Source of the DNA: an uncultured Pseudobdellovibrionaceae bacterium
Lineage (GTDB): Bacteria; Bdellovibrionota; Bdellovibrionia; Bdellovibrionales; JAMPXM01
Length of the DNA: 45,556 nucleotides
Reading direction: 5' to 3'
Assembly (NCBI GenBank): GCA_934277865.1
Contig: CAKQVW010000001.1
Location: 1-45,556 of the forward strand
This document shows, one piece after another, positions 6,465 through 26,307 of this stretch. A model generated the notes under the pieces. It saw only the letters and a list, made by a program, of their open reading frames with translations. It searched no databases and had not been told where the DNA came from. Positions within the stretch are counted from its first letter, which is position 1, and every line of letters starts with the position of its first letter. A program made the translations under genes and the position numbers.

Positions 6465-6505
6465 GAGCTAAACGCATCACGGAGTCTCAACTTTAGGAGC
6501 CTACC

Positions 6506-6907: not shown

Positions 6908-6911
6908 GCTA

Positions 6912-8063: not shown

Positions 8064-8078
8064 GAGAGGAAAATTCTG

Positions 8079-8618: not shown

Positions 8619-8937
8619 TTCATTGGCAAACGTCGGTCTTAGCCACTATCTGGTTTTGTCGGCGATCCTTTTTACGTTTGGACTACTGGGCGTTTTGCTT
8701 CGTCGCAACGTCATCGTGATTCTGATGTCGATCGAATTGATGTTGAACGCGGTCAATATCTCGTTTGTTGCGTTTTCGCGTTACTCGCCGAACGGCAACA
8801 TGGACGGCCAGGCGATGGTTTTCTTCGTCATGACGATTGCGGCGGCAGAAGCGGCCGTTGGTCTCGCACTGGCGACGACGATTTTTAAGAAATTCCGTGA
8901 AGTGAACATCCGCTACTTTGAGCATCTGAAGGGCTAG
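8605..8937 (+). CDS. nuoK: NADH-quinone oxidoreductase subunit K
   Basis: The track ORF begins at 8566, but the ATG at 8605 has GGAGGA 5 nt upstream and gives a typical 110-aa NuoK ([24 protein letters not shown]...[10 protein letters not shown]...[11 protein letters not shown]). It overlaps the nuoJ 3' end by 14 nt. Confidence 0.9.
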
Positions 8938-8941
8938 CGCT

Positions 8942-10909: not shown

Positions 10910-10912
10910 TCA

Positions 10913-12526: not shown

Positions 12527-14022
12527 CAAACTTAATCACTCTTCGAGATATCCTCGTTATCTCGCCCATGATCGCCCTTTTGGTCATGAGTTTGATCCCT
12601 GTCCTGATGAAGGTCTTTAGCGACAACAAAGAACCAAAACCCTTTGTCACCGTTGTCTACGCGCTGTTGGGTGTGATTTTGGCAGCGGGTTTGACGCTTT
12701 CGCTGGCCGGAATCAAACAGACCGCGTTCTCAGAAGCCTTGGTTTTTGACGGCATGGCGGTGTGGGGTTCGTTGATCGTTCTATTTAGCGGCGCATTTGC
12801 TCTGATGTTGGCATTTGACCACGTCGAGACTGACTCGAAACAGTTCTCCGAACAGTGTTTCCTGATGCTGGGAAGTATGATCGGCATGCTGATTCTCATT
12901 CTTTCGAACGACCTCCTTGTGACGTTCCTGGGAATCGAGATGATGTCGCTTTGCCTCTACATCTTGGTGGCGCTGAGCCGCGAAGAAGTTCTGTCAAAAG
13001 AGGCGTCGTTCAAGTACTTCATCCTCGGTAGCTTCGCATCGGCGATCTTCTTGTATGGAATCGCCCTTCTGTACGGCACAGTCGGCGGAACAAGCCTGCC
13101 TGTGGTGGCGGCGAAAACTGGCGAACTTCTGACGAACCACAACCAGCTGTTCTACATCGGCATGGCGATGGTCATCCTGGGGTTTGCTTTCAAGGTGTCA
13201 GTATTCCCGTTCCATTCGTGGACGCCGGATGTTTATCAAGGTGCCTCGACGCCGATTACTGCGTTCATGGCAACGGCGGTAAAGGCTGCGACGTTTATCG
13301 CGATCTTGCGTCTTTTCCAGCACGCAGATCCATCTGGTCCGAGCGCATTTCTGGCTGAACCGAAATTTCTGACGGTTCTGTCTTGGCTTGCGGTGCTGAC
13401 GATGATGGTTGGCAACGCTGCAGCCGTGATTCAGAACAACTTCAAGCGAATCCTCGCATACTCCTCGATCTCGCATTCTGGTTATCTGCTGGTGGGCGTG
13501 ATCACGGCGGGTTTTGCGCCTCGAATTGAAAGTTCTTTGGCGGCTTCAACGGTCGTTTTGTTTTATCTCTTCTCCTACTCATTGATGACGATCGGCGCGT
13601 TTGCGTTGGTGGCGATCTTGGAGAAGCAAGTTGGACATTCGCTAACGGTTGATGATCTCAAAGGTCTTTCGACACGTAACCCGGTCTTGGCAGGCTCGCT
13701 GGCCTTGATCTTGTTCTCGCTTGCGGGAGTTCCGCCGACGGTCGGGTTTTTTGCGAAATTCAGCCTCTTTGGATCGGCAATTGAACAAGATCTTTACTGG
13801 CTCGCGTTCTGGGGCGTTTTGAGTTCCGTGATCGCCGTTTACTATTATTTGCGTCCAGTTGTGGCGATGTACATGTCGGAATCCACGGAGCGTATCGAGC
13901 TTCAGGATGGATTCCTCACTCGTATGGCGCTTGTGCTGACGGCAATCGCAACGGTCGTCTTTGGACTGGCCTCTTCGCCGGTCCTTCAATTTGTCAGTGA
14001 ATCAGTTCTGAATCGTCTGTAA
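12523..14022 (+). CDS. nuoN: NADH-quinone oxidoreductase subunit N
   Basis: 499-aa antiporter-like subunit (KVSVFPFHSWTPDVYQGASTPITAFM). ATGA start/stop overlap with nuoM. Confidence 0.95.
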   Translation: MTNLITLRDILVISPMIALLVMSLIPVLMKVFSDNKEPKPFVTVVYALLGVILAAGLTLSLAGIKQTAFSEALVFDGMAVWGSLIVLFSGAFALMLAFDHVETDSKQFSEQCFLMLGSMIGMLILILSNDLLVTFLGIEMMSLCLYILVALSREEVLSKEASFKYFILGSFASAIFLYGIALLYGTVGGTSLPVVAAKTGELLTNHNQLFYIGMAMVILGFAFKVSVFPFHSWTPDVYQGASTPITAFMATAVKAATFIAILRLFQHADPSGPSAFLAEPKFLTVLSWLAVLTMMVGNAAAVIQNNFKRILAYSSISHSGYLLVGVITAGFAPRIESSLAASTVVLFYLFSYSLMTIGAFALVAILEKQVGHSLTVDDLKGLSTRNPVLAGSLALILFSLAGVPPTVGFFAKFSLFGSAIEQDLYWLAFWGVLSSVIAVYYYLRPVVAMYMSESTERIELQDGFLTRMALVLTAIATVVFGLASSPVLQFVSESVLNRL

Positions 14023-14039
14023 GGAACCTCGTTTCCTTA
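14020..14039. terminator. Short AT-rich hairpin spanning both convergent stop codons (nuoN TAA and the thioredoxin-like gene TAA)
   Basis: TAAGGAA (14020-14026), 6-nt loop, TTCCTTA (14033-14039). Only 7 bp with no U-tract, so it is weak as an intrinsic terminator. Confidence 0.2.
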
Positions 14040-14639
14040 CAACGCTGTGTGAAGGCGGAGCATCTTACGGATGACGTCCGCCTTGACCATACGAGTGCTT
14101 CGCAGCCTCTCAAAGCCGTCTTTCATCACAAGTAGAGTTCCAGGAGAGCTGACCAGAAACCGCTCGGCAACTGACGGGTAGGCTCCAATGTCGATCTGAA
14201 ACACGGCAATTCGTCCAAACTCTGGCTCACGCAGAATGCCTTGAAGCACTGGAGCTTGCCGCTGCCAAACTGCGTCTGAGGCATGCGAGAAAATTAACAG
14301 AATGGGATTCCCGGCCTCCGCCAGCTGTTTGTAGGAGGCCTCTTCGAAACGAGTTGCCACGTAGGGCGCGGGATTGATCACCTTCGGGGCGGCCGCAGCA
14401 TCTGCCGCAGTTGTCTGCGTGGGCGCGGTGGGCGCGGTGGCCGCGGTTGCCGGTGTGGTTGACGTTGCGGTTCCCGCTGCGGTTGGTGCGTCTGGTGGCT
14501 TCACGGCGGGTGCTTGAGGCGCTGCCGGCGCCTGCGTTTGTGCGGCGCCCGAAACGGAGATCAAGCAGACGGTCAACATCGCGGCGCAAAGCCCGATGAA
14601 ATTGGCAGAGATTGCGAAAGAAGTGGGAGATGATTTCAT
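14037..14639 (-). CDS. Exported or membrane-anchored thioredoxin-fold protein lacking the CxxC active site, with an Ala/Pro/Thr-rich linker
   Basis: Start chosen at MKSSPTSFAISANFIGLCAAMLTVCLISVSGAAQ (ATG 14639), which forms an ATGA overlap with the carbamoyltransferase stop. About 70 aa of A/P/T low complexity follow. The C-terminal domain has thioredoxin-like layout (ILLIFSHASDAVWQRQAP where W-C-G-P-C would sit, and SSPGTLLVMKDG as the cis-Pro strand) but no Cys there. Confidence 0.65.
   Translation of the reverse strand: MKSSPTSFAISANFIGLCAAMLTVCLISVSGAAQTQAPAAPQAPAVKPPDAPTAAGTATSTTPATAATAPTAPTQTTAADAAAAPKVINPAPYVATRFEEASYKQLAEAGNPILLIFSHASDAVWQRQAPVLQGILREPEFGRIAVFQIDIGAYPSVAERFLVSSPGTLLVMKDGFERLRSTRMVKADVIRKMLRLHTAL
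14419..14454. repeat. In-frame 9-nt tandem repeat (GTGGGCGCG x2, then the degenerate units GTGGCCGCG and GTTGCCGGT) inside the A/P/T linker coding region
   Basis: Read directly from the sequence. It encodes the TAPTAPT/ATAAT part of the linker on the minus strand. Confidence 0.7.
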
Positions 14640-16336
14640 AAGAGAGCTCCTTTTGGCTTTTCGACGACAAAAGATCCGATTGCGAGAAGGTCCATCTGTG
14701 TGCCGAGGAAACATTCGATGGCGTGTTCGGGCCGACAGACGACAGGTTCACCTTTTCGATTAAAAGACGTATTGATGATGACAGGAACACCCGTACGTCT
14801 TGCGCTGGCGCGAATCAGTTTTCGCAAGAGTGGATTGCTAGTTTCATCGCAAGTTTGCACTCGCGCTGTTCCGTCGACGTGAGTGATTGCAGGTACAGCA
14901 TCTTGTTTATCGGGATGTACCGTTGGCGCCAGCAGCATGTAAGGAGATGAAATCTTGAGATCAAAATACTCTGAGCAATGCTCTTGAAGAACGATCGGAG
15001 CGAAGGGGCGGAAAGCCTCGCGTTTTTTGATACGTGAGTTCAAAATATCTTTCATTCCGGCAAACGCGGCGTTGCCGATGATCGAACGATTTCCCAAAGC
15101 ACGAGGGCCAAACTCCATTCGCCCCTGAAACCATCCGATGGCTTTGTTGTCAGCAATCGCTTGTCCGACATATTCGCAGAGGTCGTCTTGACTGAGCTTT
15201 TTTCCTTGAATGGAATACTTCTTCAGACAGCTTTCAATTTCATCATCGGAAAATTCGGGTCCAAGATACGCGTGGTCCATTTTTCTTCGGTCTGATTTTT
15301 TTAAAAGACCATGGTAGACAAACAGCGCAGCACCAACAGCGCCACCAGCATCACCGGCTGCCGGTTGAACGAAGATATCCTCGAAGTCGGTGGTCTTTAA
15401 GATCTTGGCGTTTGCCACGCAATTGAGGGTGACCCCACCGGCTAGACACAGGTTCTTCAGGCCGGTTCGTTGCTGCAGCAATTTTGCATTTAGGAGAATC
15501 ACTTCTTCAACGACATCTTGGCAGGCGGCAGCTAGATCGTAGTGCTCTTGTGTCCATGAAGCGTTGCGGTCGCGAGGTGGACCGAATACGTCTACCCACT
15601 TTGAACTCCACATCTGATTACCCGCGCGGAACGCGAAATACTCCTGATTGAGCTCAAAACTTCCATCAGGCATGATCTTTACGACATCGCGGATCTGTTT
15701 GCGGTATCTTTCGGGGGACCCGTATCCCGCAAGCCCCATCAGCTTTCCTTCGCCACCGTGGGCATCAAAGCCTAAAAAAACAGTGACGGCGGTGTAGAGA
15801 AGGCCAAGAGAGTTTGGGTAGTGAATTTCATTGAAGACCTCAATTGAGCGTCCCCGTCCGACACCAACCGAAAAGGTTGCCCACTCACCAACTCCATCTG
15901 CGGTGATGATGGCTGCCTCTTCGAAGCCTGAGGGAAAGAATGAGCTGGCCGCATGGCTAAGGTGGTGTTTAACAAAGTAGACGGGGCCTTTGTAGCCGAG
16001 CTCCTCTTCAATGGTCAGTGGAAGCGACAGCCGTCCGGCTAGCCACTTCGGCATGGCCCGAGAAAATGCCGGCCAGGAAAATGGCCAGCTGCGCAGATGA
16101 TCTTGGATCACTCGTGCAAACTTCAGGAATGGCTTTTCAAAATAGGCGATGTGTTCAACCTGATTGATATCGATGCCAGCTCGTTCAAGACAAAACCGAA
16201 TCGAATGAATGGGAAAAGCGCTGGTGTTCTTTTCGCGACTAAATCGCTCTTCCTGGGCGGCGGCGATAATCTCACCGTCTTTTAGCAGGCAGGCGGACGA
16301 GTCGTGATAAAAGCAAGAAACACCTAAGATATACAA
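14636..16336 (-). CDS. Carbamoyltransferase, NodU/CmcH family
   Basis: 566-aa ORF with the characteristic N-terminus (M)YILGVSCFYHDSSACLLKDGEIIAAAQEERFSREK and downstream HHLSHAASSFF. The TTG start at 16336 matches the family N-terminus. Confidence 0.9.
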   Translation of the reverse strand: MYILGVSCFYHDSSACLLKDGEIIAAAQEERFSREKNTSAFPIHSIRFCLERAGIDINQVEHIAYFEKPFLKFARVIQDHLRSWPFSWPAFSRAMPKWLAGRLSLPLTIEEELGYKGPVYFVKHHLSHAASSFFPSGFEEAAIITADGVGEWATFSVGVGRGRSIEVFNEIHYPNSLGLLYTAVTVFLGFDAHGGEGKLMGLAGYGSPERYRKQIRDVVKIMPDGSFELNQEYFAFRAGNQMWSSKWVDVFGPPRDRNASWTQEHYDLAAACQDVVEEVILLNAKLLQQRTGLKNLCLAGGVTLNCVANAKILKTTDFEDIFVQPAAGDAGGAVGAALFVYHGLLKKSDRRKMDHAYLGPEFSDDEIESCLKKYSIQGKKLSQDDLCEYVGQAIADNKAIGWFQGRMEFGPRALGNRSIIGNAAFAGMKDILNSRIKKREAFRPFAPIVLQEHCSEYFDLKISSPYMLLAPTVHPDKQDAVPAITHVDGTARVQTCDETSNPLLRKLIRASARRTGVPVIINTSFNRKGEPVVCRPEHAIECFLGTQMDLLAIGSFVVEKPKGALL

Positions 16337-16337
16337 A

Positions 16338-16496
16338 TCACAGCCCCGCGTAGATGAACGTCATGATAATGCCGGGCCCGATTTTGAAAAAGAGAACCGC
16401 AAACAAGACTAAGGTAATCAACAAAGGAGCCATGAAGTACAGTTTGTGCTCTCGAATGAGATGTTTCATTTCTCGGAAAAGCAGTCCGATTTTCAT
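16338..16496 (-). CDS. Small single-TM protein, DUF5989-like (carbamoyltransferase-associated)
   Basis: Not in the supplied track (52 aa). I translated it by hand as MKIGLLFREMKHLIREHKLYFMAPLLITLVLFAVLFFKIGPGIIMTFIYAGL. Its TGA lies 1 nt before the carbamoyltransferase TTG. The basic N-terminus, one TM and C-terminal FIY motif match what I remember of DUF5989 proteins found next to these carbamoyltransferases. Confidence 0.6.
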   Translation of the reverse strand: MKIGLLFREMKHLIREHKLYFMAPLLITLVLFAVLFFKIGPGIIMTFIYAGL

Positions 16497-16511
16497 GTCG
16501 CAACTCCGGAT

Positions 16512-16802
16512 TCAGGATTGAAACTTCGCAGCTTCGAGATCTTCATTGTAGCATTCTGCCGCGATCCAGTTCGAGTCTTTTGATATCGTTTTTGCTCCAA
16601 GAGATTTCGAGAAGAAAATCCGGGCGACGACACTCGTCGGACCAAGAACAAAGAAGTAAATAAAGAAGAGCGCCAAGGTGCCAAGAATCTTCTGCAGAAC
16701 GACCGTGACGAGAAACCATTCGAGGCCTCTAAGAGCTCGAAAGATAGGTCTGGGCAGGATCTTCTGCAGTGTCGAATGAAATTTTCCGAGTCTCTTCTCC
16801 AT
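16512..16802 (-). CDS. Small membrane protein, SxtJ-like (short form)
   Basis: 96-aa ORF with hydrophobic segments (WFLVTVVLQKILGTLALFFIYFFVLGPTSVVARIFF) followed by a polar tail. It sits directly upstream of the DUF5989-like ORF and the carbamoyltransferase, which is the conserved trio order as I recall it. Family assignment is from memory only. Confidence 0.5.
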   Translation of the reverse strand: MEKRLGKFHSTLQKILPRPIFRALRGLEWFLVTVVLQKILGTLALFFIYFFVLGPTSVVARIFFSKSLGAKTISKDSNWIAAECYNEDLEAAKFQS

Positions 16803-16890
16803 GAGAACTTCCAGTTTAAGTTCCGCTTCGTAAAATTCAAAGACAAATACAGTCTGGACGAAGGGCTAAGTCGGTGCCACGATCTTAGTC

Positions 16891-18537
16891 GTGAAGAAGT
16901 TAATCGCCCTCGGTCTAGGTGCTGTCTTTACACTGGTGATCTTCGAGATCGCCTTACGCCTTATTGGGTTCCAAGAGCTCTATTCTCGCGATGCACTCGG
17001 ACCAGGCGTGAAGTCCGAAATGCCGGCTATCATCTTCGTAGGGAACTCTCATACGATGGGTACTGGTGCTGCGCCTGGGAAAAGCTTTCCCGACCAATTC
17101 CGCGAGATCTTGAATGTTCGGCATGGGAAGAGTCCGTTTGAAATTGTGAACCTTGGCCGAGGCAATGCGAATTCGAGTTTTGTTGCGGATCAAATGCCGA
17201 AATTTCTCAAAACCTATCGGCCGCAGATTGTCGTCCTAATGACAGGTGAAACAAACTTCTGGAATCACCTTGGCTATTCAGATTTTGTCCAAAAGACGTC
17301 TCCCGGTCTGGAATCCATTGGTCTCAAATTTTACAACATGGCTTACTCGCTTCGGACCTTTCGCTTCATTCAACTCTTCAGCGAGTTTGTGATGCGCCCG
17401 AGGCAGGATCATCGATTTTTCTCAGACTATACCGAAGAGGATCGCGCATGGATCTGGGTGGCCTCAATGAACAATGCAAACATGTTCGATTCGTCGAAGA
17501 TGACACCTGCTGAAGCCAAAGATGCCTATGAGACTATCCGGAGCTATTCCGATAAACACGGATCTTCGCTGAGTCTTTTGGAAAGTCAGATCGAACTTCT
17601 GCCCAGACTGTGGAAGGGACGCCCCGAGCTCGAGGATGAGTGGAAAAAACAAATACGCGAGTACGCGGCAACGTTTGGGGAAAAGGGTTACAGCTATTAT
17701 CTCGACAGGCTGACCAACACGTACCTTCGTGAGTCGACGGATAGGACGATTCGTGAAGTGGCAGCTTCCATGCTTGCGAGACGGCCAAAGGACTTTGCTG
17801 ATTTACGTGAGGTTGTTGAATACCACCAGGAGGCTCGGTCCTATCGCAGCCGATCTATTGACGAGCAGATAGGTTTTTATACAGCGGTGTCGCTTGCATA
17901 TCCGACCCACGCCACAGCAAGGATATTTTTATGTAGCAAGCTTCGTCAGGCGAAGAGACTGCGCGAGGCGTTCGAAGTTGCAAAAGCTGGTATGGAGCTC
18001 AACCCTTTGGCGAATCAGTCCAACTGGATGAGTGAAATTCTTGTTACAGAGGAAGAGGCTCGAAAAGATACTTCGCCGGAGATGGCCAGTCTTATTGAAG
18101 ACATCGATAAATATCGGAAAGAATTTGTGCAGAGGTTTCCGCGCCATCGAGGAAGGGTCGCGAAAATCAGCGATGAAGAAATATTGAATTGGATTGAGTT
18201 CGACCTCGAACGAATCCGAAAATTGGTAGAGGAAAGCGGCGCAAAGTTGATGCTTCAGACCTATCCGCCAGAGCGTTGGGGCTCAGAAAAGCTTGTCGAC
18301 GCTCTCTTGCGTCGGTTTGCTGCAAAATACCAACTCCCACTATCTGACACGTCTCGTGAATTGATCCATCTAGAGCCGGATCCTAAGAAACGAGATCGAT
18401 TCTTCACGAAGATGTATGGTGATTACGACGCCCACTTAGGAGAAGAGGGCTACGCCGTCGTCGCCCGACTACTTGAGCGGGACTTCGTAGCGCAGGGTTG
18501 GCTCACTGACGCTCAAGGCGTCAGAGAGTCGAAATAA
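16891..18537 (+). CDS. Membrane-anchored SGNH/GDSL-like hydrolase with a large helical (TPR-like) insertion
   Basis: 548-aa ORF with a GTG start and an N-terminal TM (KKLIALGLGAVFTLVIFEIAL). Block I-like IIFVGNSHTMGTG, block II-like NLGRGNANS, block III-like VVLMTGETNFWN and a C-terminal block V-like YGDYDAHLGEEGYAVVA. About 300 aa of helical sequence lie between blocks III and V. Confidence 0.6.
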   Translation: MKKLIALGLGAVFTLVIFEIALRLIGFQELYSRDALGPGVKSEMPAIIFVGNSHTMGTGAAPGKSFPDQFREILNVRHGKSPFEIVNLGRGNANSSFVADQMPKFLKTYRPQIVVLMTGETNFWNHLGYSDFVQKTSPGLESIGLKFYNMAYSLRTFRFIQLFSEFVMRPRQDHRFFSDYTEEDRAWIWVASMNNANMFDSSKMTPAEAKDAYETIRSYSDKHGSSLSLLESQIELLPRLWKGRPELEDEWKKQIREYAATFGEKGYSYYLDRLTNTYLRESTDRTIREVAASMLARRPKDFADLREVVEYHQEARSYRSRSIDEQIGFYTAVSLAYPTHATARIFLCSKLRQAKRLREAFEVAKAGMELNPLANQSNWMSEILVTEEEARKDTSPEMASLIEDIDKYRKEFVQRFPRHRGRVAKISDEEILNWIEFDLERIRKLVEESGAKLMLQTYPPERWGSEKLVDALLRRFAAKYQLPLSDTSRELIHLEPDPKKRDRFFTKMYGDYDAHLGEEGYAVVARLLERDFVAQGWLTDAQGVRESK

Positions 18538-19672
18538 TTTTTTTCAACCGATTCAGCGCCTCATCAATTTCGGTCGTCGTTGTCGTGGGTGAAAAGCTAA
18601 ATCGCAACTGATGAGCTAGGCGGTCGTCGCGTCTCATTGCCAAAAGAACGGCGCTTCGATCGGATTTCCCTGTGCCGCAGGCGGCGCCTGTTGAACATGC
18701 AACCAGTTCGTCTGCGAGCTGCCGATGTAAGACCTTGGACTCAAATTTCGGAAAAGTAAAACTGAGGACATGGCAAAGCGAGCTCTTTTCAACCTCTCCA
18801 TTAAACTGCACATCGTGAAACCGTTTCTTTAGCTCGTCGATAGTGTGTCTTTTGATTTGTGAAAGATCGGTGATCGTTTTCGAGGTCCAAGTCGTCGAGG
18901 CTTTGGCAAAGGCTGAAATCAACTCGACAGAGGTTGTGCCAGGTCGAAGTCCTTTTTCTTGTTTTCCCCCATATACCAACGGGGAAATTTCGATGCCTTT
19001 CCTGATGTAGAGGGCACCGACGCCCTTTGGTCCACGAACCTTGTGGCCGCTGAGGGTCATCAGATCTACTGGCAGCGTGTTGATCTGAAATTCCGTGTGA
19101 CAAAAGCTTTGGCAGGCGTCGGCGTGAAACCGCACGCCGCGCTCTCGGCAGATGGTACCGATTTTTTCTAAATCTTGGATGGTTCCGATTTCATTGTTCC
19201 CGTGAGAGACCGAAACCAAAACCGTATTGGCTTGAATCAAACTTTTCAGGTTCGAAAGGTCCACATAGCCAAGGGCGTCCACTTGCACTTCGTCCCAGGC
19301 GATCAGTCCATCTTCTTTCATTCGTGCGGCGGTATTTGCGACGCTCGAGTGTTCGGTCGAAGCCGTGATGATATGGGGTAGGCCGGCTTTGTCAGAGGTG
19401 GTTCGCTTCCAATCAGAAGCAGATCGTTGCAGCACCCAGTTGTTGGCCTCTGTCCCGCCCGAGCAGAAGATGATTTCAGAAGGCAAGCTCCCAAGTTTCG
19501 TAGCGATTGTTTCGCGGGCCACTTCGAGAAGTGCGGCAGCCTTTGTCCCCGGGCGATGCGCCGAGGACGAGTTTGCGACTCCGGATTCCAGGAGCTCGAA
19601 CAGATGGTTGCGGGCTTCAGGCGCCATGGAGGTGGTTGCGGCATGATCGAGATAGATTTCTGTCTGCTTCAT
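18521..19672 (-). CDS. Cysteine desulfurase (class V aminotransferase, NifS/IscS-like)
   Basis: Start chosen at MKQTEIYLDHAATT (ATG 19672, GGAGGA 9 nt upstream). PLP-lysine motif SGHKVRGPKGVGALYIRKG. FCSGGTEANN. Active-site loop STGAACGTG. The 3' end overlaps the convergent SGNH gene by 17 nt. Confidence 0.85.
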   Translation of the reverse strand: MKQTEIYLDHAATTSMAPEARNHLFELLESGVANSSSAHRPGTKAAALLEVARETIATKLGSLPSEIIFCSGGTEANNWVLQRSASDWKRTTSDKAGLPHIITASTEHSSVANTAARMKEDGLIAWDEVQVDALGYVDLSNLKSLIQANTVLVSVSHGNNEIGTIQDLEKIGTICRERGVRFHADACQSFCHTEFQINTLPVDLMTLSGHKVRGPKGVGALYIRKGIEISPLVYGGKQEKGLRPGTTSVELISAFAKASTTWTSKTITDLSQIKRHTIDELKKRFHDVQFNGEVEKSSLCHVLSFTFPKFESKVLHRQLADELVACSTGAACGTGKSDRSAVLLAMRRDDRLAHQLRFSFSPTTTTTEIDEALNRLKKIISTL

Positions 19673-19718
19673 AGAAGTCGATCCTCCTCGCTTGCTAAAA
19701 ATCAAGCAAGTCGAGACA

Positions 19719-20789
19719 ATGGGCGGCGAGATGTCGGATCACAAGTCAGTCGCAATTTGCGACCTCAAATCAGGCAAAGAGGCTTCTTCGAAGACGTTGT
19801 GGTCTGTCGAGGAGGCCCTCGCGGCGAGAGTTAACAGCTGGGAGGGTTGGTTCTGCGCAGCTGGCTCCGAAAATCTGCATATCTCAGCAGACGGCAATCT
19901 CTTCTCGGCCACATGTCGTGTCGGTGGCTATCTTGGGAACGTGTTCGAAGGGCAGATGTCGCTTCCAGAAAAATGGATCGTCTGCACGAAAAAGTGGTGT
20001 ATGTGCGGAGCCGACATGCAAATCCGCAAAGCGAAAAATGCCGAGCTGATTGCGTCGGCCCGGCAGCCGCTCCCGAAAGATGCCGACGTCGAGTCACAGG
20101 GCGATGTCGCGAAGCGAGCAGCCGCAGCCTTGGCGGCCAATCTTGTCGTACCGGCGCAACACGATACCCATTTGGCATTTCCGAAATCGATCACGTGGGA
20201 CCTTTCGCGCCGATGCAATTATTCCTGTTCCTACTGCCATCCTTCTGTCTCGAACCAGTACGAGAGCCACCACTCACAGCGGACCTTGTTAGAAGCTGTT
20301 GATCGATTAGAGCGTCGTTTCTGCAGAGGAGAAAAGGCCAAGTGGGTTTTCACGGGTGGTGAGCCGACGATCAATCCTGCCTTTATGGATGTCGTGGATC
20401 GTATCAACTCGTATGGGCACACGGTTCATGTTCAAAGTAACGGGAGCCGTGGACCTGCTTACTTTCGCGAGCTCATCGCCAAAGCCTGTGTCGGATTGAG
20501 TCTGCACCTGGAAGCTGATGCGGTGGACCGGTTTCTAGAAACCTGCGCTGCGATTGTCGACGAAAAGGAAACAAATGAATTGGCGTCGCGAATGTGGTTT
20601 GGCGTACGCATCATGGTAGGACCCGGTCGTGTTGAAGAGGCCATTGCGCTCAAACGTCGATTGCAGGAGATCTCAGGATTCTCGAAGTGGGGAAATATCA
20701 ACATGAGTCCGTTGTACAAGCGTCTTAAGCAAGACGAACTGATGGAATACTCAAAAGATGAGTATCAAGAACTCCTAAGGCACGTTTAG
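19719..20789 (+). CDS. Radical SAM enzyme A with an extra N-terminal Cys cluster
   Basis: CX3CX2C motif RRCNYSCSYCHP plus the GGEP-type SAM motif FTGGEPTINP. An N-terminal auxiliary-cluster-like pattern precedes the core: WFCAAG...ATCRVGGYLGNVF...CTKKWCMCG. The start is uncertain (TTG 19692, ATG 19719 or ATG 19731). Divergent from the desulfurase gene. Confidence 0.75.
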   Translation: MGGEMSDHKSVAICDLKSGKEASSKTLWSVEEALAARVNSWEGWFCAAGSENLHISADGNLFSATCRVGGYLGNVFEGQMSLPEKWIVCTKKWCMCGADMQIRKAKNAELIASARQPLPKDADVESQGDVAKRAAAALAANLVVPAQHDTHLAFPKSITWDLSRRCNYSCSYCHPSVSNQYESHHSQRTLLEAVDRLERRFCRGEKAKWVFTGGEPTINPAFMDVVDRINSYGHTVHVQSNGSRGPAYFRELIAKACVGLSLHLEADAVDRFLETCAAIVDEKETNELASRMWFGVRIMVGPGRVEEAIALKRRLQEISGFSKWGNINMSPLYKRLKQDELMEYSKDEYQELLRHV

Positions 20790-22150
20790 TAAACTTTCAG
20801 GAATTCGTTGAGTTCGGGAAAAATCTTTGCAAACGAGGTTCCGCGTTCTGCGTCCAAGCGTCGAATGTAGTCACGCGTTTGTGGAAGCCGGTCCGAATGG
20901 TCGGCCTCATTCATCAAATTGATGATGCCTTGAATTTTGTTCGATTTCTTTTTGCTACGCTCTTCGAACGCCAAAAGCTTTTCGGTAACGATCTTCTTCA
21001 GCTCGGCCGGATAGTTCTGAATGGAAAGGTACGGAGGGTAGTGCACAACCCCGGGGTGGAAATAGCCGTTGAAACCTTTTGTCACCTTTTTGAAGTTTTG
21101 GTCCTCGATCCATTGTGCGTAGTCCGCCAAATAGAACATGTTCATCATGTGAACGGAGCAGAGAAGCATGACCTTCACACTCTCGGGCGATTCTTCGTCG
21201 AGGCATTTGAGGTTCGTCGCGATTGACTCCCAGTTCGCCGGGAAGCGCATGTAGTTATTCTTCTCTCCCCAACAATCAAGACTGATAAAAACCTCGACTA
21301 GCTTAAACTCCTTCCAAAGCGGGAACAGAGTTTTATCTAGAAGCGTGCCGTTTGTATGATAGCGAATCTGAATGTTCTTGGCGGCGCCAGTGCGGACGCA
21401 GGCTTCAACAAGCTTTCGTGTTTCGTCGAGCAACATCGGCTCGCCGCCACCCACGATGATCTCTCGCATGTTGGGAAGCATGGATTCGATCGAGTCCCAA
21501 AACGCAGGGTCCTTGTACCATTCGAATCGGGACTGATTGATCTGGCTCTTGTGCGCCCATTCACTGCGGACTTCGCTGGTTTCTGCTGTTTCGGCGATGC
21601 GCTTCGCAAGTGCTGTCCAACGACTCGAATCTTGAGGACGGCACATAACACATTGGAGATTGCACGTGTTACCTAGGCGCAAGTCGATTGCGACGATGTC
21701 CTCATTCAGCGTTCCATCTTCTTTTGTGCGATGAACGCGATCGAGGACAAATTCACGTCCGAAACGCTCTTTCCAAACTCGGTTCTCAGTGATTCGGTGT
21801 GACCGATAGCCGTTTTTCTCTTCGGCGTAACAGTGTGCACATGCTGAAACCTTTTCGCCCTTCAGCATTTTGAGTCGGGCAGATTTCAGGTAGTCCGAGT
21901 TCCACGCCGATTGCAGACTTTGATCATTCAAGTTCAGCTTGTTTTCGTTCTTGGCGACACAGCAAAGAATGGCCGAGCCGTCCGTGTAGGTGGCAAGATG
22001 GGTGAATGGAAGAACGCAAAACGTAGGCGAAATTCGGCCAAACTCATATGGGTCGCTCAGCGATTCTTCTTTTTGCGAGCCCTCGAGGTTTCTAACCGGA
22101 TCAACGTTTTTGAAGGGGAATTCGTCTTTCTTGCCAAAGAAACTAGCCAT
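20786..22150 (-). CDS. Radical SAM enzyme B with an N-terminal twitch/SPASM-like Cys domain
   Basis: 454 aa. N-terminal FCVLPFTHLATYTDGSAILCC...AWNS...ACAHC (Cys45, 63, 64, 104, 107), then the radical SAM motif GNTCNLQCVMC (Cys163/167/170) and GGGEPML. Its stop codon shares TTAG with the stop of convergent enzyme A. Confidence 0.8.
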   Translation of the reverse strand: MASFFGKKDEFPFKNVDPVRNLEGSQKEESLSDPYEFGRISPTFCVLPFTHLATYTDGSAILCCVAKNENKLNLNDQSLQSAWNSDYLKSARLKMLKGEKVSACAHCYAEEKNGYRSHRITENRVWKERFGREFVLDRVHRTKEDGTLNEDIVAIDLRLGNTCNLQCVMCRPQDSSRWTALAKRIAETAETSEVRSEWAHKSQINQSRFEWYKDPAFWDSIESMLPNMREIIVGGGEPMLLDETRKLVEACVRTGAAKNIQIRYHTNGTLLDKTLFPLWKEFKLVEVFISLDCWGEKNNYMRFPANWESIATNLKCLDEESPESVKVMLLCSVHMMNMFYLADYAQWIEDQNFKKVTKGFNGYFHPGVVHYPPYLSIQNYPAELKKIVTEKLLAFEERSKKKSNKIQGIINLMNEADHSDRLPQTRDYIRRLDAERGTSFAKIFPELNEFLKVY

Positions 22151-23474
22151 GAACGGAATATCCTTCCGCGTGCAGCAAGCTGCTGAGGTCGGGAAGCGTT
22201 TGTTCCATACGTTGCTTGCGGTGCAGGTCGAGCATGCGTGTGTAGTGGATGAAGTCTTTCATCTTTGCTTCATCTTGTTCGGGATGTTCGGAAAGCAAAT
22301 TGATGCAACTATCGATGGAATTCTTAAGGAACCGCTGAGTCTCGTAGGTCTTCGAGCGCGTCTTGTAGGCCTCAAGGCGGCGCACGGCCTCTTGCTTGGC
22401 GGAGTTTGGCAAGATCTGCGCGTTGATGTAGTTCGGGTCTGTTGCATACAAGAAGTCGACGTTGATGTCGCGTCCGGACTCAAGCGCGACACTCTCGATG
22501 TAATCGAGCAGTCTTGTAATCGTTAGCACATTGTAAATTTGCAGAACTGGCGTCACGCCAATCTGAACGTTTTTTGGCAGCTTGACCAGTTTACGGAAAT
22601 TCTTGTCGATGGTTTCCCATCGACTGAGATACCGAATGTATTCGTTCTCGGGGCCATGGCCATCTATCGAGGCATTGATCAAAACAAACTGGAAGTGCGG
22701 CAGGTATTCTAAAAATTTGTCCTGCACATTGGTGCAGTTGATGTTGAACATCAGAAAGATGTTCTTCGAGTGCCCGGAATCGATACAGGCCTGCATGAAT
22801 TTGTAATTGCGTTCGATCAGAGTGGGCTCACCGCCCGTCAGATAAACCTTGCGCAAATTTGGAATCGAGCGAATGACCTCATCCCAAAATAAATCTGACT
22901 CATACCATTCTGGTGTTTCAGCTGGTTTTTTGCCGCCATTGAAGCGGTTCCAAAACTCGCGGTACTCTTCGTTTTGGTCGTAGAGCTGCACGGTCTCGCG
23001 ATAGATCTGGCTTGAATTATAGGGGTTGCAGGATCGGCACTTGAGATTGCAGAGGTTGCCCAGTCGCAAATCCAAATAGAGCGCCGGTTTATCAAGCTTG
23101 AAATCATTTTTACGAGAAGCTTCGACACGCTCTTCAATTTCGGTGCGCGCCTTGTTCATCCACTCTTCGTTGTGCATTTCGCGATAGGATGTTTTTCCAA
23201 TCGACTCTTGGAAATAACACAGCTCACACCCTGGAACTTGCTCGCCTTCGAGCATGCCTTTGCGAATGCTGCGCATGTGATTGGAGTTCCACGCCGCTTC
23301 CAATGGTTCGACGCCGGCGCGGTAACCGTGCCCATCGTCTTTCTTCACCATGCCGCCGCCTTTGGCGACGCAACAGAATCCAACTTTGCCGTTTGACTGA
23401 ACGACTTGTTCGATCCACGGGTAGACGCAGAACGTGTTGGCCGACAATTTGGAATCGCGATTGGATCCTGCCAT
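22143..23474 (-). CDS. Radical SAM enzyme C, paralog of B, with an N-terminal twitch/SPASM-like Cys domain
   Basis: 443 aa. FCVYPWIEQVVQSNGKVGFCC...AWNS...GCELC (Cys16, 34, 35, 83, 86), then GNLCNLKCRSC (Cys142/146/149) and TGGEPTL. An 8-nt overlap with the start of enzyme B suggests translational coupling. Confidence 0.8.
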   Translation of the reverse strand: MAGSNRDSKLSANTFCVYPWIEQVVQSNGKVGFCCVAKGGGMVKKDDGHGYRAGVEPLEAAWNSNHMRSIRKGMLEGEQVPGCELCYFQESIGKTSYREMHNEEWMNKARTEIEERVEASRKNDFKLDKPALYLDLRLGNLCNLKCRSCNPYNSSQIYRETVQLYDQNEEYREFWNRFNGGKKPAETPEWYESDLFWDEVIRSIPNLRKVYLTGGEPTLIERNYKFMQACIDSGHSKNIFLMFNINCTNVQDKFLEYLPHFQFVLINASIDGHGPENEYIRYLSRWETIDKNFRKLVKLPKNVQIGVTPVLQIYNVLTITRLLDYIESVALESGRDINVDFLYATDPNYINAQILPNSAKQEAVRRLEAYKTRSKTYETQRFLKNSIDSCINLLSEHPEQDEAKMKDFIHYTRMLDLHRKQRMEQTLPDLSSLLHAEGYSVHG

Positions 23475-23540
23475 ATAGAACCCCAGTCTCTAGCGGAATT
23501 GAGGAAATCTCAACTGTGTTCGCTGGAATCTTTCGAGGCT

Positions 23541-24746
23541 CTATAGGTCATATTTGCGCAGCGCTTGGATTCCAGCCTTGAAGCCGATGTGGACGATTCG
23601 TCCGAGAATTTCCGCGTTCAAGCTGAAGTGATCCACGAAAAACATCTCATAGTCGTTCGGTGACGGATGGATGTAGATGTAGTCCACGCCCGGGCGATAG
23701 TTCACGCGCTTTGTCAGGATTTCGAGTAGCTTTTCGCGATGCTCGTCGGGGAGGCCTTGTTGGCGGAAATAGCCGTCGACCGCGCTCATGATGGCCGAAA
23801 TCTGCTGTTGGTGCTCGATGTGCTTTTCGATCTTTTGTTGAATCACCTGATAGAGCGCCTGGTTCATGATCATGGGTATGCCATAGTTGTGCAGCGAGCC
23901 CATGACTGGCGTGTAGTGGTAGGGCTGAACCGAGTAGCTGGCAATGACGAGATCCGCACCGGCATCGGCCGCAACGTGCGTTGATAGGGTTTCGCGAATC
24001 TCTCCGTCAAAAAAGTAGAGATCTTTGCCTTTTTGGTTCTTGATGCCATATGGCGCGAAGAAGGGTGGCAGAGCCGTACTGGCTGCGACCGCCTGAGAAA
24101 TCGACGCGAAGTTGGCGTACTTGATATTTCGAACCTTAAAAGTCTCAGGAAAGTTTCCGAAGACGACCTTGCGTGAGTGATTGAGCTGCGTGGCGATCAC
24201 GTAACTTTCGACTCCAAGCTGCGCAAAATCATTTTCGCTGAGAACATTCTGGCGCATGTAGCGCTCGATGTTTGCTGTCGTGAAGAGGCCGTTTAGTTTG
24301 AAGCCATTTTTGAGAAATGATTCGAGGCCACCGGTGACGAGGCTTTTTCTGCGAAGAAGACCTGGCAGCGTTCCTAAAAAATTCACGCCGTTCATGGCGA
24401 AGATATCGCGATAGGTGATGGGGCGAAGTTTGGTGAAGACTTTTTTGCGTCGAGAGAACTTATTCAGTTCGGTTTCGGCCCCGCGCTCGAAGGCATCGAT
24501 GATCGAATCCACGGAGTGACCGGCCGCCAGAAGTGACGTCACAAAAGATCCCGCGCTGGACCCCACGTAGGTTTTAAACGTCATCTTGTCTTCCGGGAAC
24601 CGCAGGCGCACATCCTCTTTCGAGCCACCGGCGAAGTTGAATCCCTTTTCACGTAACGCGAGACAGACGCCTAAATGAAACGCTGCAGCTTTGATTCCGC
24701 CGCCCGAAAGTACCAGGCCTAACTTCTTTTTCTCACTGAGCCGCAT
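23541..24746 (-). CDS. Patatin-like phospholipase
   Basis: Oxyanion motif LVLSGGGIKAAAFHLG, nucleophile elbow GSSAGS and catalytic Asp motif FFDGEI. Start placed at MRLSEKKKLG (24746); the track ORF extends to 24815. Confidence 0.85.
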   Translation of the reverse strand: MRLSEKKKLGLVLSGGGIKAAAFHLGVCLALREKGFNFAGGSKEDVRLRFPEDKMTFKTYVGSSAGSFVTSLLAAGHSVDSIIDAFERGAETELNKFSRRKKVFTKLRPITYRDIFAMNGVNFLGTLPGLLRRKSLVTGGLESFLKNGFKLNGLFTTANIERYMRQNVLSENDFAQLGVESYVIATQLNHSRKVVFGNFPETFKVRNIKYANFASISQAVAASTALPPFFAPYGIKNQKGKDLYFFDGEIRETLSTHVAADAGADLVIASYSVQPYHYTPVMGSLHNYGIPMIMNQALYQVIQQKIEKHIEHQQQISAIMSAVDGYFRQQGLPDEHREKLLEILTKRVNYRPGVDYIYIHPSPNDYEMFFVDHFSLNAEILGRIVHIGFKAGIQALRKYDL

Positions 24747-24896
24747 CCCACTGATTGTAAAGAGCTGCTCTGAGCAAGGACAGCCGAAAAATGCGGATCT
24801 GGCATTGTAATGCACTGTTCCGAGTTCGAAGAATCTCTTTTCATGTCAGTCATTTAAGTTGTGCAGAATTCCTAAGAGCCGCTAGTCTGGCCAGGA

Positions 24897-25370
24897 ATGG
24901 AACAGTGGCTTCTTCTGACAGACTACGCCAGCAAATACCGCGTGAGCGTTTCGACTCTCCGTCGACGAATCAAGGCGGGCTTGCAAGCGCACAAGTTTGA
25001 GGCGGGACGATATTATCTTCCCGACCATCTTGAGGCAGCCACGGCGGAGGCTCCCAGGCAGATGATGAAGGTCGCCGAGCCGGTTCCTTTGAAGGCAGCA
25101 ATTGAGGCCACTCCGGTCCCACCGGCGGTTACATTGGCAGCAGTCGAAGCGATCGCAAAAGCGGACGTCAAATTGTCGGATGAGCCGTTGATCACCACGA
25201 CGACCAAACTCCTCAACGAACTCAAGCAGGCCTACACGTTGATCCTTCATGAAAAAGAAGAGCAGATCATCTACTTAAAAGAAGAGATCGCGGATTTAAA
25301 AACGTTGGTCCGCGTGCTCGAATCGGAAAACGCGCGACTGCGCAGTCCATCTTCGGACTTCGGTAATTAG
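24897..25370 (+). CDS. Small DNA-binding protein: N-terminal excisionase/MerR-type helix-turn-helix plus C-terminal coiled coil
   Basis: 157 aa. LLTDYASKYRVSVSTLRRRIKAGL...GRYYL resembles HTH_17/excisionase-type HTH. The C-terminus LLNELKQAYTLILHEKEEQIIYLKEEIADLKTLVRVLESENARL is heptad-like. SD is poor. Confidence 0.55.
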   Translation: MEQWLLLTDYASKYRVSVSTLRRRIKAGLQAHKFEAGRYYLPDHLEAATAEAPRQMMKVAEPVPLKAAIEATPVPPAVTLAAVEAIAKADVKLSDEPLITTTTKLLNELKQAYTLILHEKEEQIIYLKEEIADLKTLVRVLESENARLRSPSSDFGN

Positions 25371-25378
25371 AAAAAGGG

Positions 25379-26272
25379 CTACCTGGCAGTTTTGTCGCCT
25401 TTTGTGGGCTTAGCGGCCGGTGCGACTTCCGACGATTGTGGTGCGGGGAAAAACTGCACACACTTTCCAGCGATATCAGAGAGGGCGGCGCGGTAGCTTC
25501 CATCCGCATCAGAGGCTTTCAAAGAAAAGAGATCCATCGATTTCACTAGAGTGTGAGACTCCGGAGTCACCTCTTTGCCTTTCTCTTTGCCGCTGGAGAA
25601 CGCATCAACCAACTGACCGAGTAAGTCGGAGGCGGCTTTCTTCGGAGCTGTCTGTGCCTGCGGAACGGGAAAGGCATCCTTTGCAAACGAAGAATGCAGC
25701 TTTCGGACATTGGATTCATGAGTGGCCTTGTAGCCCGAGAGCAAACTTCGCAAATTCGCCGGGATTGACTTCATCTGATAGAACGAGTCGCAGCTTTGTG
25801 CTTTTTTAGCGAATTCACTCAATGTTTTTGCATTCGATTGTGAGCGTAGGAGTTCGCACACTTCGCGTGTCAACGTTACGGCGACGCCGTTGTAGGAGTA
25901 CGTGTGTGAAGCGACCTCTTGCTTTTTAAAGACCGTCAATGCTCCAAGATGCTTTTCATCCCGATCCTTGCGCCAGGTAAGAACCTCTTCAGATTCATCC
26001 GCAAACGCAGAGAACTGAATCGCCATCGAATTGTCCTTTGAGACCACGCGCTGAGTGGCACCATCGTCTGCTGGTACTGGAGGAAACCAATATTGCGGGA
26101 CAACACCGAGATTCAGTTCGCCGTTGAACTTAGCACCAGGAAAATCCGTGAGCGTCGCATCGTAGACCGCGAACTGGCCAAGGCTTGGAGCCCTTTTTGC
26201 ATCGTCCGCGGCATGAACAAACACTGGGAGAGTGAGAGCGGCAATCACTAATGTTTCTTTTATAGCTTTCAT
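25379..26272 (-). CDS. Secreted hypothetical protein
   Basis: Start chosen at MKAIKETLVIAALTLPVFVHAADD (signal peptide, AHA-A site) with a purine-rich SD. No recognisable domain. Confidence 0.6.
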   Translation of the reverse strand: MKAIKETLVIAALTLPVFVHAADDAKRAPSLGQFAVYDATLTDFPGAKFNGELNLGVVPQYWFPPVPADDGATQRVVSKDNSMAIQFSAFADESEEVLTWRKDRDEKHLGALTVFKKQEVASHTYSYNGVAVTLTREVCELLRSQSNAKTLSEFAKKAQSCDSFYQMKSIPANLRSLLSGYKATHESNVRKLHSSFAKDAFPVPQAQTAPKKAASDLLGQLVDAFSSGKEKGKEVTPESHTLVKSMDLFSLKASDADGSYRAALSDIAGKCVQFFPAPQSSEVAPAAKPTKGDKTAR

Positions 26273-26307
26273 CGTCTCACCCTTCCTCATAGACCGACCA
26301 ACTTTCC

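Follow-up and report, generated by a model that had tools for sequence, protein, structure and literature searches.

We analyzed a stretch of 45,556 nucleotides (nt) from an uncultured Pseudobdellovibrionaceae bacterium (assembly GCA_934277865.1, contig CAKQVW010000001.1), referred to here over its full length as the window. The subject is a ten-gene block that lies, by open reading frame (ORF) listing and translation, between nuoN (12523-14022, plus strand) and a small helix-turn-helix (HTH)-like gene followed by lon. The block encodes a carbamoyltransferase (CT) with two small membrane proteins, an SGNH/GDSL-type hydrolase, a cysteine desulfurase, three radical-SAM enzymes, a patatin-like phospholipase, and an exported protein. 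Its genes are as follows.

14037-14639, minus strand: g1, exported protein of 200 amino acids (aa); closes the minus-strand operon and belongs to the constant core of the nuoN-lon slot
14636-16336, minus strand: CT, predicted O-carbamoyltransferase of the NodU/CmcH/TobZ type with Carbam_trans_N and Carbam_trans_C domains
16338-16496, minus strand: g3, DUF5989 mini-membrane protein of 52 aa with one transmembrane helix and a Pfam DUF5989 match
16512-16802, minus strand: g4, membrane protein of 96 aa, in the position of SxtJ
16891-18537, plus strand: g5, SGNH/GDSL-type hydrolase of 548 aa, N-terminally anchored; SxtL-type cassette member
18521-19672, minus strand: g6, cysteine desulfurase of 383 aa, group-I NifS/IscS/DndA-like, at the junction of both modules
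19731-20789, plus strand: g7, R1 (rSAM1), radical-SAM enzyme with an N-terminal five-Cys domain
20786-22150, minus strand: g8, rSAM2, N-terminal-twitch radical-SAM enzyme of NF033640
22143-23474, minus strand: g9, rSAM3, N-terminal-twitch radical-SAM enzyme of NF033640
23541-24746, minus strand: patatin-like phospholipase of 401 aa; first gene of the minus-strand operon

An initial annotation of this DNA had described the ten genes as one tightly packed, dedicated enzyme island. The ORF listing bore out their number and positions, with four of the ten starts refined from gene calls on near-identical metagenomic contigs, and Pfam and NCBIfam scores agreed with the gene families that it had named. 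The packing and translational couplings were also present as described. The CT and g1 genes overlap by ATGA and rSAM3 and rSAM2 by 8 nt, ATGGCTAG (both checked on the sequence); the convergent 3′ ends of the SGNH and desulfurase genes share 17 nt, and those of R1 and rSAM2 share 4 nt; two divergent pairs are separated by spacers of 88 nt and 58 nt. Again in agreement with that annotation, no precursor-like ORF, glycosyltransferase, or transporter was detected in the block. Its intergenic gaps measure 58 to 150 nt.

The block does not resemble a mobile genomic island, and we rejected this candidate: there was no integrase, tRNA, notable repeat, or deviant composition, and the flanks were syntenic in all relatives compared. 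The initial annotation had likewise seen no marks of mobility. No integrase was found at the block and no tRNA in the searched block region, flanking repeats were limited to chance-sized matches of 16 to 21 nt, and an Rfam scan of the region gave no element. A promoter and terminator scan returned fewer sites than shuffled sequence did. The comparison of GC content and codon usage with the flanks that the annotation had proposed placed the block within the range of the window. GC content was flat along the block; GC content at third codon positions (GC3) of the CT, SGNH, and desulfurase genes (0.51 to 0.57) was at the low end and reported as not outside the range of the window (~0.54 to 0.68). 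Composition and codon usage thus gave no clear sign of a recent transfer of the block. The surrounding genes are housekeeping genes (GH3, mfd, nuo, lon, dksA, dnaJ, grpE, ligA, and gatA). Other genomes were compared through locus searches seeded with R1, CT, and rSAM2, after which the window proteins were mapped on the fetched loci (given here by L and P numbers) by tblastn.

CT matched PF02543 (256.7 bits, residues 3-338) and PF16861 (229.9 bits, residues 392-560), so that both domains of the family are present; they are predicted to form a soluble protein with a Kae1/ASKHA-like N-terminal and a YrdC-like C-terminal domain. CT aligned over its full length to the solved structure 7xb6 and to NovN, GdmN, and TobZ (E values of 6e-110 to 1e-81). 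Residues His124, His128, Asp147, and Asp329 were invariant in 18 homologues, and we take them to correspond to the metal-binding residues of TobZ. CT is predicted to be an O-carbamoyltransferase that uses carbamoyl phosphate and ATP. The family is large, with >8000 relatives at E<1e-30, and identities of >50% were reached in Omnitrophota and Elusimicrobia.

The DUF5989 protein scored 29.4 bits against a Pfam cut-off of 27, has a transmembrane helix at residues 19-37, and matches SxtK in length. It partners with CT: its sequence is 51 to 85% identical to that of a small gene adjoining CT in L090, L091, L172, L173, and L176. A literature search found no paper on DUF5989. In the g4 protein, a hydrophobic core spans residues 27-65, and the C-terminal tail, ...W..(x)..Y...(K/R)QS, is conserved. 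It had been called SxtJ-like, a label for which hidden Markov models (HMMs) gave no support (no match even at E<=1); what stands is its homology, at 33 to 49% identity, to small membrane proteins encoded by 73- to 94-aa genes at the same cassette position in L090, L172, L173, and L176.

The SGNH hydrolase matched Lipase_GDSL_2 at 32.9 bits, exactly at the cut-off. It has a transmembrane helix at residues 4-22 and a helical insert of ~350 aa between blocks III and V, and the expected residues of blocks I, III, and V are present. Each of the five homologues in which the N-terminal part is present retained the block I Ser (motif GNSHT), and Gly119, Asn122, and His515 were invariant across six homologues. 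Full-length homologues with 28 to 43% identity adjoin CT cassettes in L090 and L173 and are present in L008; for the long GDSL proteins in L090 and L173, identity to g5 is 28 to 29% over the full length. Further GDSL or tetratricopeptide repeat (TPR) proteins, not all of them compared with g5, adjoin CT in L091, L177, and the P0088 locus. Together with the CT trio (CT, DUF5989, and g4), the SGNH gene makes up a four-gene cassette.

All three radical-SAM enzymes carry the CxxxCxxC motif (CNYSCSYC in R1, CNLQCVMC in rSAM2, and CNLKCRSC in rSAM3) and matched PF04055 (51, 41, and 30.5 bits, respectively). The N-terminal Cys clusters that the initial annotation had pointed out correspond to a conserved N-terminal Cys-rich domain present in all three, with an N-terminal SPASM match in two of them (residues 45-108 in rSAM2). 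In R1, this domain has five conserved Cys residues (C42, C62, C85, C90, and C92). In rSAM2, C63, C64, C104, C107, and the motif residues C163, C167, and C170 are invariant and C45 nearly so. rSAM3 is a paralogue of rSAM2 (29% identity) and is translationally coupled to it. Both are full members of NF033640, "twitch domain-containing radical SAM protein" (380.4 bits for rSAM2 and 365.2 bits for rSAM3 over the whole model; cut-off, 170), whereas R1 falls outside it, with 37.5 bits over the radical-SAM core alone. By these scores, R1 belongs to a separate small family without an existing model. NF033640 is a named family for which we found no function paper and no solved structure, and our literature search returned nothing on the function of N-terminal-twitch (N-twitch) radical-SAM enzymes or on radical-SAM clusters of Bdellovibrio. 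The N-terminal Cys domain of R1 (window positions 19731-20030; profile ~8-101) aligned to the C-terminus of the radical-SAM proteins P0408, P0426, P0432, and P0433. Sequence comparison suggests that the N-terminal domain of R1 may be a permuted twitch- or SPASM-like module.

AlphaFold2 models of rSAM2 and R1 had mean confidence (pLDDT) values of 86.9 and 91.5. Foldseek searches against the PDB gave anSME, SkfB, SuiB, and viperin as neighbors of rSAM2, with template modeling (TM) scores of <=0.35, and BlsE (best; TM score of 0.42), SkfB, SuiB, anSME, DesII, and SpeY as neighbors of R1, with TM scores of ~0.4. The neighbors of both models were thus remote and generic radical-SAM structures (TM scores of about 0.35 to 0.44), and a sequence search of the PDB with rSAM2 gave no match. 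Since sugar- and peptide-modifying enzymes are mixed among these matches, structure leaves the substrate class undecided.

The desulfurase matched Aminotran_5 (199 bits) and, over the full length, TIGR03402 (NifS; E value of 1.8e-90), and its PLP-lysine motif SGHK and catalytic-loop motif STGAAC are both present. It scored below the equivalog cut-offs of NifS (303 versus 530), IscS (261 versus 304), and DndA (271 versus 480). Orthologues occur in all slot variants (described below), and homologues adjoin CT cassettes in L090, L173, and the P0088 locus. Across unrelated genomic settings, the desulfurase thus accompanies the CT cassette as well, not radical-SAM genes alone. Three groups of desulfurase homologues are about equally distant (36 to 41%), and pairwise identity therefore cannot tell an origin with the CT cassette from one with the radical-SAM genes.

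The patatin-like phospholipase (PF01734, 69.9 bits; motifs GGGIK, GSSAG, and DGE all present) is the most conserved member of the block, with 83 to 98% identity in L007, L009, L010, L172, and L174. In L174 its gene overlaps the first N-twitch gene by 38 nt. The g1 protein has a hydrophobic signal or anchor helix at residues 14-32, and its orthologues adjoin nuoN in L007 to L010, L172, and L174 (36 to 69% identity). The initial annotation had proposed a Cys-less thioredoxin fold for g1. The lack of Cys was evident, with SDAVW at the WCGPC position, but the fold match was weak (TIGR01068, 18.7 bits versus a cut-off of 96.8), and there was no Pfam match. Within g1, an Ala/Pro/Thr-rich low-complexity linker of ~70 aa precedes the Cys-less, putatively thioredoxin-like C-terminal domain. 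Ala/Pro/Thr-rich linkers are often O-glycosylated in bacteria. Within the slot, conservation of g1 goes along with that of the desulfurase and the radical-SAM genes.

Among relatives, the slot between nuoN and lon takes at least five forms. V1—L009, L010, and L174, in which nuoL is ~80% identical—has the order patatin-N-twitch-N-twitch-R1 (opposite strand)-desulfurase-g1 and lacks the CT trio and SGNH. V2 (L172) has the order patatin-N-twitch-N-twitch-desulfurase-g4-DUF5989-CT-g1 without R1 and SGNH; its eight orthologues all point in one direction, in a single operon whose gaps are <=40 nt. V3, the full gene set, is present in the window and in L007. V4, from a Pseudobdellovibrionaceae locus (P0063), begins with patatin and continues further on with PP-loop ATPase-desulfurase-TusA-g4-like-DUF5989-CT, followed by three radical-SAM/SPASM genes. 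These three lie downstream of CT and encode proteins of N-twitch size; the PP-loop ATPase is ThiI-like by Pfam. V5 (L008, 6282-8803) lacks the CT and g4 genes and has an intact SGNH gene, with an intact 56-aa DUF5989 gene between g1 and SGNH. Identity to the V1 relatives L009 and L010 is uneven, at 85 to 86% for patatin, 68 to 73% for the N-twitch genes, 52 to 53% for R1, and 40 to 41% for the desulfurase.

Patatin, two N-twitch genes, the NifS/IscS-like desulfurase, and g1 are therefore the constant core of the slot, while R1, the CT trio, SGNH, TusA, and the PP-loop gene are its accessory genes. The alternating orientation that the initial annotation regarded as unusual was exact in its layout but has a simple origin, since SGNH and R1, both on the opposite strand, are set into an operon that is co-directional in L172. 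That annotation had also named independent shuffling in relatives as evidence against a single island. This was seen in part: the CT trio, SGNH, and R1 vary among slot versions. Its gene content holds, and a neighborhood comparison of the kind that it had proposed found the modules conserved, each of them independently elsewhere, but not the ten genes together. The block is not one co-inherited ten-gene unit because its modules are absent independently in L009/L010/L174, L172, and L008. It is very probably a mosaic operon region, in which a constant core and two separately conserved modules share a variable core-chromosome slot in a Bdellovibrionota lineage.

The first module is the carbamoylation cassette. 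CT homologues with 52 to 70% identity repeatedly had the same gene company. In three Bdellovibrionota-like loci (L090, 3244-9683; L173, 6058-12263; and the P0088 locus), CT occurs with g4-like, DUF5989, GDSL-type, class-V aminotransferase, TusA, and PP-loop ATPase genes; the aminotransferase of L090 is 39% identical to the window desulfurase. A fuller cassette of this kind is likewise present in the P0063 locus. In L091 (Omnitrophica), CT occurs with g4-like, DUF5989, GDSL/TPR, and PP-loop ATPase genes. The PP-loop proteins of L090, L091, and L173 had their best match, at 146 to 185 bits, to TIGR03573 (N-acetyl sugar amidotransferase [NASAT]), and that of L091 matched the solved Legionella NASAT 8wex. 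The NASAT family acts in the synthesis of the O-chain of lipopolysaccharide (LPS) (PMC10607449), and wapO/PA5005 is a putative carbamoyltransferase known for carbamoylating the LPS core (PMC8005017). In L177 (Omnitrophica, 6494-17967), CT and a long SGNH/TPR protein occur with glycosyltransferase family 2 (GT2), MBOAT, carrier protein, acyl-CoA dehydrogenase, AMP-ligase, and two radical-SAM genes, a layout that, by analogy, resembles a Dlt/Alg-type glycopolymer O-acylation system. The TusA/aminotransferase sulfur relay beside a carbonyl-activating enzyme hints at putative thiocarbonyl chemistry. A metagenome scan by CT alignment yielded 80 loci, and the matches listed were of other CT subfamilies (44 to 53% identity); cassette partners were present in almost none of these 80 loci among the matches listed.

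The cassette type itself is known from saxitoxin gene clusters, where sxtI encodes a carbamoyltransferase, sxtJ and sxtK (ABI75100 and ABI75101) encode small unknown proteins, and sxtL (ABI75102) encodes a GDSL lipase, the four having consecutive accession numbers (PMC2679770, PMC2684587). In the published proposal, SxtI, SxtJ, and SxtK jointly carry out carbamoylation, and SxtL removes the carbamoyl group (PMC2679770, PMC2684587). Genes g2 (CT) to g5 of the window are arranged side by side in the same manner, as a CT, a ~50-aa protein, a ~100-aa membrane protein, and a GDSL hydrolase (sxt sizes from PMC2679770). Unlike the sxt clusters, the window has none of the other sxt genes (SxtA, SxtG, and so on); its SGNH protein is longer (548 versus 426 aa), N-terminally anchored, interrupted by the long helical insert, and encoded on the opposite strand; and the relatives of its cassette add desulfurase, TusA, and NASAT-like PP-loop ATPase genes that are foreign to the sxt cluster. 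TobZ, NovN, GdmN, and NodU (PDB 3ven, 9s2t, 7vx0, and 7xb6) are homologous across both CT domains, but they act on soluble antibiotic or Nod-factor substrates and lack the two mini-membrane partners.

The second module is the radical-SAM trio. R1 belonged to a family of 52 clusters by word-index search, and an exhaustive profile search of 1.84 billion proteins gave 362 representatives at E<1e-30. Genome matches to R1 came almost exclusively from Bdellovibrionota, in which a single genome often had two or three loci. Clustering of the ORFs of 59 loci found R1-type and N-twitch genes together in 41 of 56 loci, and both were present in 14 of the 22 loci flanked by at least 5 kb on each side. A pattern of one R1 and two N-twitch genes occurred in several unrelated contexts (L011, L019/L020, L023, and L012-14/L039/L045/L088). 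One context that recurs in several genomes is a tight operon with GT2 genes, which in L088 (4713-12592) consists of overlapping genes in the order GT2-GT2-N-twitch-N-twitch-R1-MFS, with the trio in the distal part. The GT2 proteins of trio operons resemble exopolysaccharide glycosyltransferases. Of the 22 well-flanked loci, 6 had GT2 genes close to the radical-SAM genes; other repeated neighbors were a GDSL lipase (L086) and LolA-like plus ATP-binding cassette (ABC) genes (L043, L048, and L049). The trio is conserved as a unit independently of the window slot, and radical-SAM arrays reach ~13 genes in Bdellovibrionota.

Several of these arrays are unusually dense paralogue expansions. Two contigs of Bdellovibrionia metagenome-assembled genomes (MAGs) (L059 and L060, 1-20800) hold at least 12 N-twitch and R1-type genes in 20 kb, and L043 (3175-16438, Bdellovibrionota) has five R1-type and five N-twitch genes beside the LolA-like and ABC genes. 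In a Planctomycetia MAG (L061, 2-20903), genes for proteins of 890 to 1188 aa, each combining two or three radical-SAM domains with B12-binding, SPASM, or TPR parts, are interleaved with four R1-like and two N-twitch-like genes.

The two modules occur together, in differing order, in the V2 operon and in V4. Outside this lineage, L077 (Verrucomicrobiales) unites CT in one operon with a pair of N-twitch-like genes, a PP-loop gene, and additional radical-SAM genes; L176 (Elusimicrobiales) has its CT trio amid six radical-SAM genes, which are of other subfamilies. SGNH-like, PP-loop/NASAT-like, and GT2 genes recur by R1/N-twitch clusters in L032, L033, L058, L072, and L086. Beyond the slot, a CT gene was nearby in 2 of ~75 R1 loci (L021 and L077), and a desulfurase or patatin gene was nearby in none. 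Statements across phyla rest here on loci or proteins with a phylum given in the source name, namely Omnitrophica (L091 and L177), Elusimicrobiales (L176), and Verrucomicrobiales (L077); L090, L173, and P0088 were not counted. We read the association of the modules as a loose "toolbox," typical of glycan-tailoring loci, rather than as an obligate pathway.

The initial annotation took the ten genes for one dedicated pathway, acting in sequence on a single substrate and inherited as a unit. The L172 operon, with its eight closely spaced orthologues from patatin to g1, fits such a pathway, which is also consistent with the P0063 slot, which holds the CT cassette, the desulfurase, and three radical-SAM/SPASM genes in another order, with CT adjoining radical-SAM genes in two other phyla (L077 and L176), and with translational coupling in the window. 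However, L009, L010, and L174 keep the rest without the CT trio and SGNH, L172 lacks R1 and SGNH, and L008 lacks CT. Outside the slot, CT accompanies R1 in only the 2 of ~75 loci, with no desulfurase or patatin; none of the 80 metagenomic CT loci had an R1 or N-twitch gene among the matches listed; and the radical-SAM genes of L176 are of other subfamilies. We therefore consider a single ten-gene pathway rather unlikely.

Juxtaposition without shared function is the opposite extreme: an insertion-tolerant slot in which the trio, the cassette, patatin, and g1 are neighbors by history alone. The modules are indeed gained and lost independently, each is conserved alone elsewhere, and conservation relative to L009 and L010 differs sharply between patatin (85 to 86%), R1 (52 to 53%), and the desulfurase (40 to 41%). 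Pure coincidence nevertheless fits poorly with the tight co-directional operon of L172, with CT and radical-SAM genes side by side in two other phyla, and with the SGNH-like, PP-loop, and GT2 genes beside R1/N-twitch clusters in L032, L033, L058, L072, and L086. On balance, chance neighborhood appears distinctly unlikely.

Within the mosaic, our preferred reading is that the products of the block may tailor a sugar-containing envelope molecule, either a glycan or a glycolipid. We offer this tentatively, at somewhat less than even confidence, from the company that the modules keep elsewhere; the combined statement of a mosaic slot with envelope-sugar tailoring we hold at about even confidence. 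The radical-SAM trio would carry out radical tailoring of a sugar in the cytoplasm (oxidation, epimerization, deoxygenation, or sulfur insertion), and the desulfurase may supply sulfur or Fe-S clusters to these multicluster enzymes. CT, held at the membrane by the two mini-proteins (DUF5989 and g4), would convert carbamoyl phosphate and ATP to a carbamoyl-adenylate and O-carbamoylate a hydroxyl group. With a predicted periplasmic location, the SGNH domain could then remove or transfer an ester or carbamate group after export, and patatin may act on a lipid part. Envelope-directed modification, as proposed in the initial annotation, remains the best-supported direction, given the GT2 genes, NASAT-like enzyme, MBOAT plus carrier protein, and MFS or ABC/LolA-like exporters beside homologous modules elsewhere.

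Known systems are consistent with this reading in part. In MBOAT or AT3 plus SGNH systems (DltBD, AlgIJX, PatAB, and OatA), an anchored SGNH-fold protein acts outside the cytoplasm on an envelope polymer. The CT and SGNH genes of L177 lie directly beside MBOAT, carrier protein, and AMP-ligase genes in a comparable manner, whereas the window has no MBOAT or AT3 gene and the transferred group would be carbamoyl rather than acetyl or D-alanyl. BtrN, SpeY, DesII, and BlsE share a radical-SAM core with an auxiliary Fe-S domain, and the glycosyltransferase company of the trio fits such enzymes; in contrast to theirs, which is C-terminal, the auxiliary domain in the window proteins is N-terminal. The similarity to sugar-tailoring radical-SAM enzymes is remote (TM scores of ~0.4 or lower, 17 to 20% identity), and peptide maturases score equally.

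Several observations weigh against envelope-sugar tailoring. The window has no glycosyltransferase, flippase, or transporter, and the link to sugars rests entirely on modules in other loci. The peptide-modifying enzymes anSME, SkfB, and SuiB scored like sugar enzymes in both fold searches. We found no characterized member in the literature for the NF033640, R1, DUF5989, or g4 families. The likeness of g4 to SxtJ and of g5 to SxtL is one of gene type and position, and the window cassette is reduced, without the TusA and PP-loop genes of the fuller cassettes. No R1 or N-twitch gene was near CT in the 80 metagenomic loci among the matches listed (44 to 53% identity), and the link between modules is largely confined to the slot of this lineage, plus L077 and L176.

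An alternative substrate is a membrane lipid, deacylated by patatin and SGNH, with acyl chains or head groups modified by the radical-SAM enzymes. Patatin is first in the operon and, in L174, overlaps the first N-twitch gene by 38 nt; GDSL lipase genes occur by radical-SAM clusters (L086), LolA-like and ABC genes flank the arrays of L043, L048, and L049, and there were weak matches to the lipid radical-SAM enzyme Tes. These Tes matches were generic, however (17 to 24 bits), and patatin accompanies radical-SAM genes in this slot only. The anchored SGNH beside MBOAT and GT2 genes points instead to glycopolymers, and all solved CT homologues act on hydroxyl groups of sugars or polyketides, so that lipid remodeling seems quite improbable.

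The radical-SAM enzymes could also modify a peptide or protein, encoded elsewhere or g1 itself, in the manner of ribosomally synthesized and posttranslationally modified peptides (RiPPs). The appearance of anSME, SkfB, and SuiB among the top fold matches would agree with this, as would the frequency of SPASM and twitch domains in peptide maturases and the co-conservation of g1 in the slot. Yet the TM scores were only 0.35 to 0.42, the intergenic gaps (58 to 150 nt) leave no room for a precursor ORF, and Pfam and NCBIfam scans of the window proteins detected no RiPP recognition element (RRE) domain, leader peptidase, or exporter. Paralogous trios, moreover, lie in GT2 operons and not beside small ORFs. 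We regard RiPP-like maturation as very unlikely.

An antiphage defense island with a patatin effector, a viperin-like radical-SAM enzyme, and an SspA/DndA-like desulfurase was rejected, as the PADLOC matches (SspA, 353 bits, and DndA, 345 bits, for the desulfurase; pVip, 51 bits, for R1; phospholipase effector, 36 bits, for patatin) were generic only: the SspA/DndA scores reflect general NifS/IscS similarity (NifS, 303 bits), no DndBCDE or SspBCD partner lies beside the desulfurase, the pVip matches cover the generic radical-SAM motif region alone, and the syntenic core-chromosome position with patatin 83 to 98% conserved is unlike defense islands.

For envelope-sugar tailoring in a mosaic slot, the enzyme families and the cassette type are already known. 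What is new, per our searches, is a conserved R1 plus two N-twitch unit that is expanded in Bdellovibrionota and has no characterized member; a recurring sulfur-relay, NASAT-like, and glycan-type context for the sxtIJKL-type cassette; and the combination of the radical-SAM trio and the cassette in the nuoN-lon slot. What had been an unnamed ten-gene island thus becomes two defined, testable modules, the radical-SAM trio and a widespread cassette. The usual partners of the cassette (desulfurase, TusA, NASAT-like, GT2, and MBOAT) suggest an ancestral role of sxtJ/K/L-type genes in envelope sugar modification, and the GT2-linked trios offer a concrete entry point to the function of NF033640.

A bolder proposal, which we consider speculative and improbable, is that R1 and the two N-twitch enzymes are a new radical-SAM class, expanded in Bdellovibrionota and distinguished by an auxiliary Fe-S domain that has shifted to the N-terminus, which together with the desulfurase and the cassette performs undescribed envelope-sugar chemistry. 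If so, the enzymes might, for instance, insert sulfur or form a thiocarbonyl in a glycan or glycolipid of the envelope of predatory bacteria, and the arrays of up to ~13 paralogues would mark a diversifying surface-chemistry system.

Three other genes of the window deserve mention. A 157-aa HTH/coiled-coil protein is encoded just past patatin (24897-25370, plus strand); it has no family match, and its gene is kept in all slot variants, with 59 to 81% identity. The adjacent 303-aa secreted protein (25379-26290, minus strand) also has no family match and is kept only in the closest relatives. A 315-aa ORF adjoining mfd (1885-2832, minus strand) has no Pfam match and is the only compositionally odd gene of the window, with a GC content of 0.42 and GC3 of 0.38, compared with ~0.53 and 0.60 in its neighbors; it may have been acquired.

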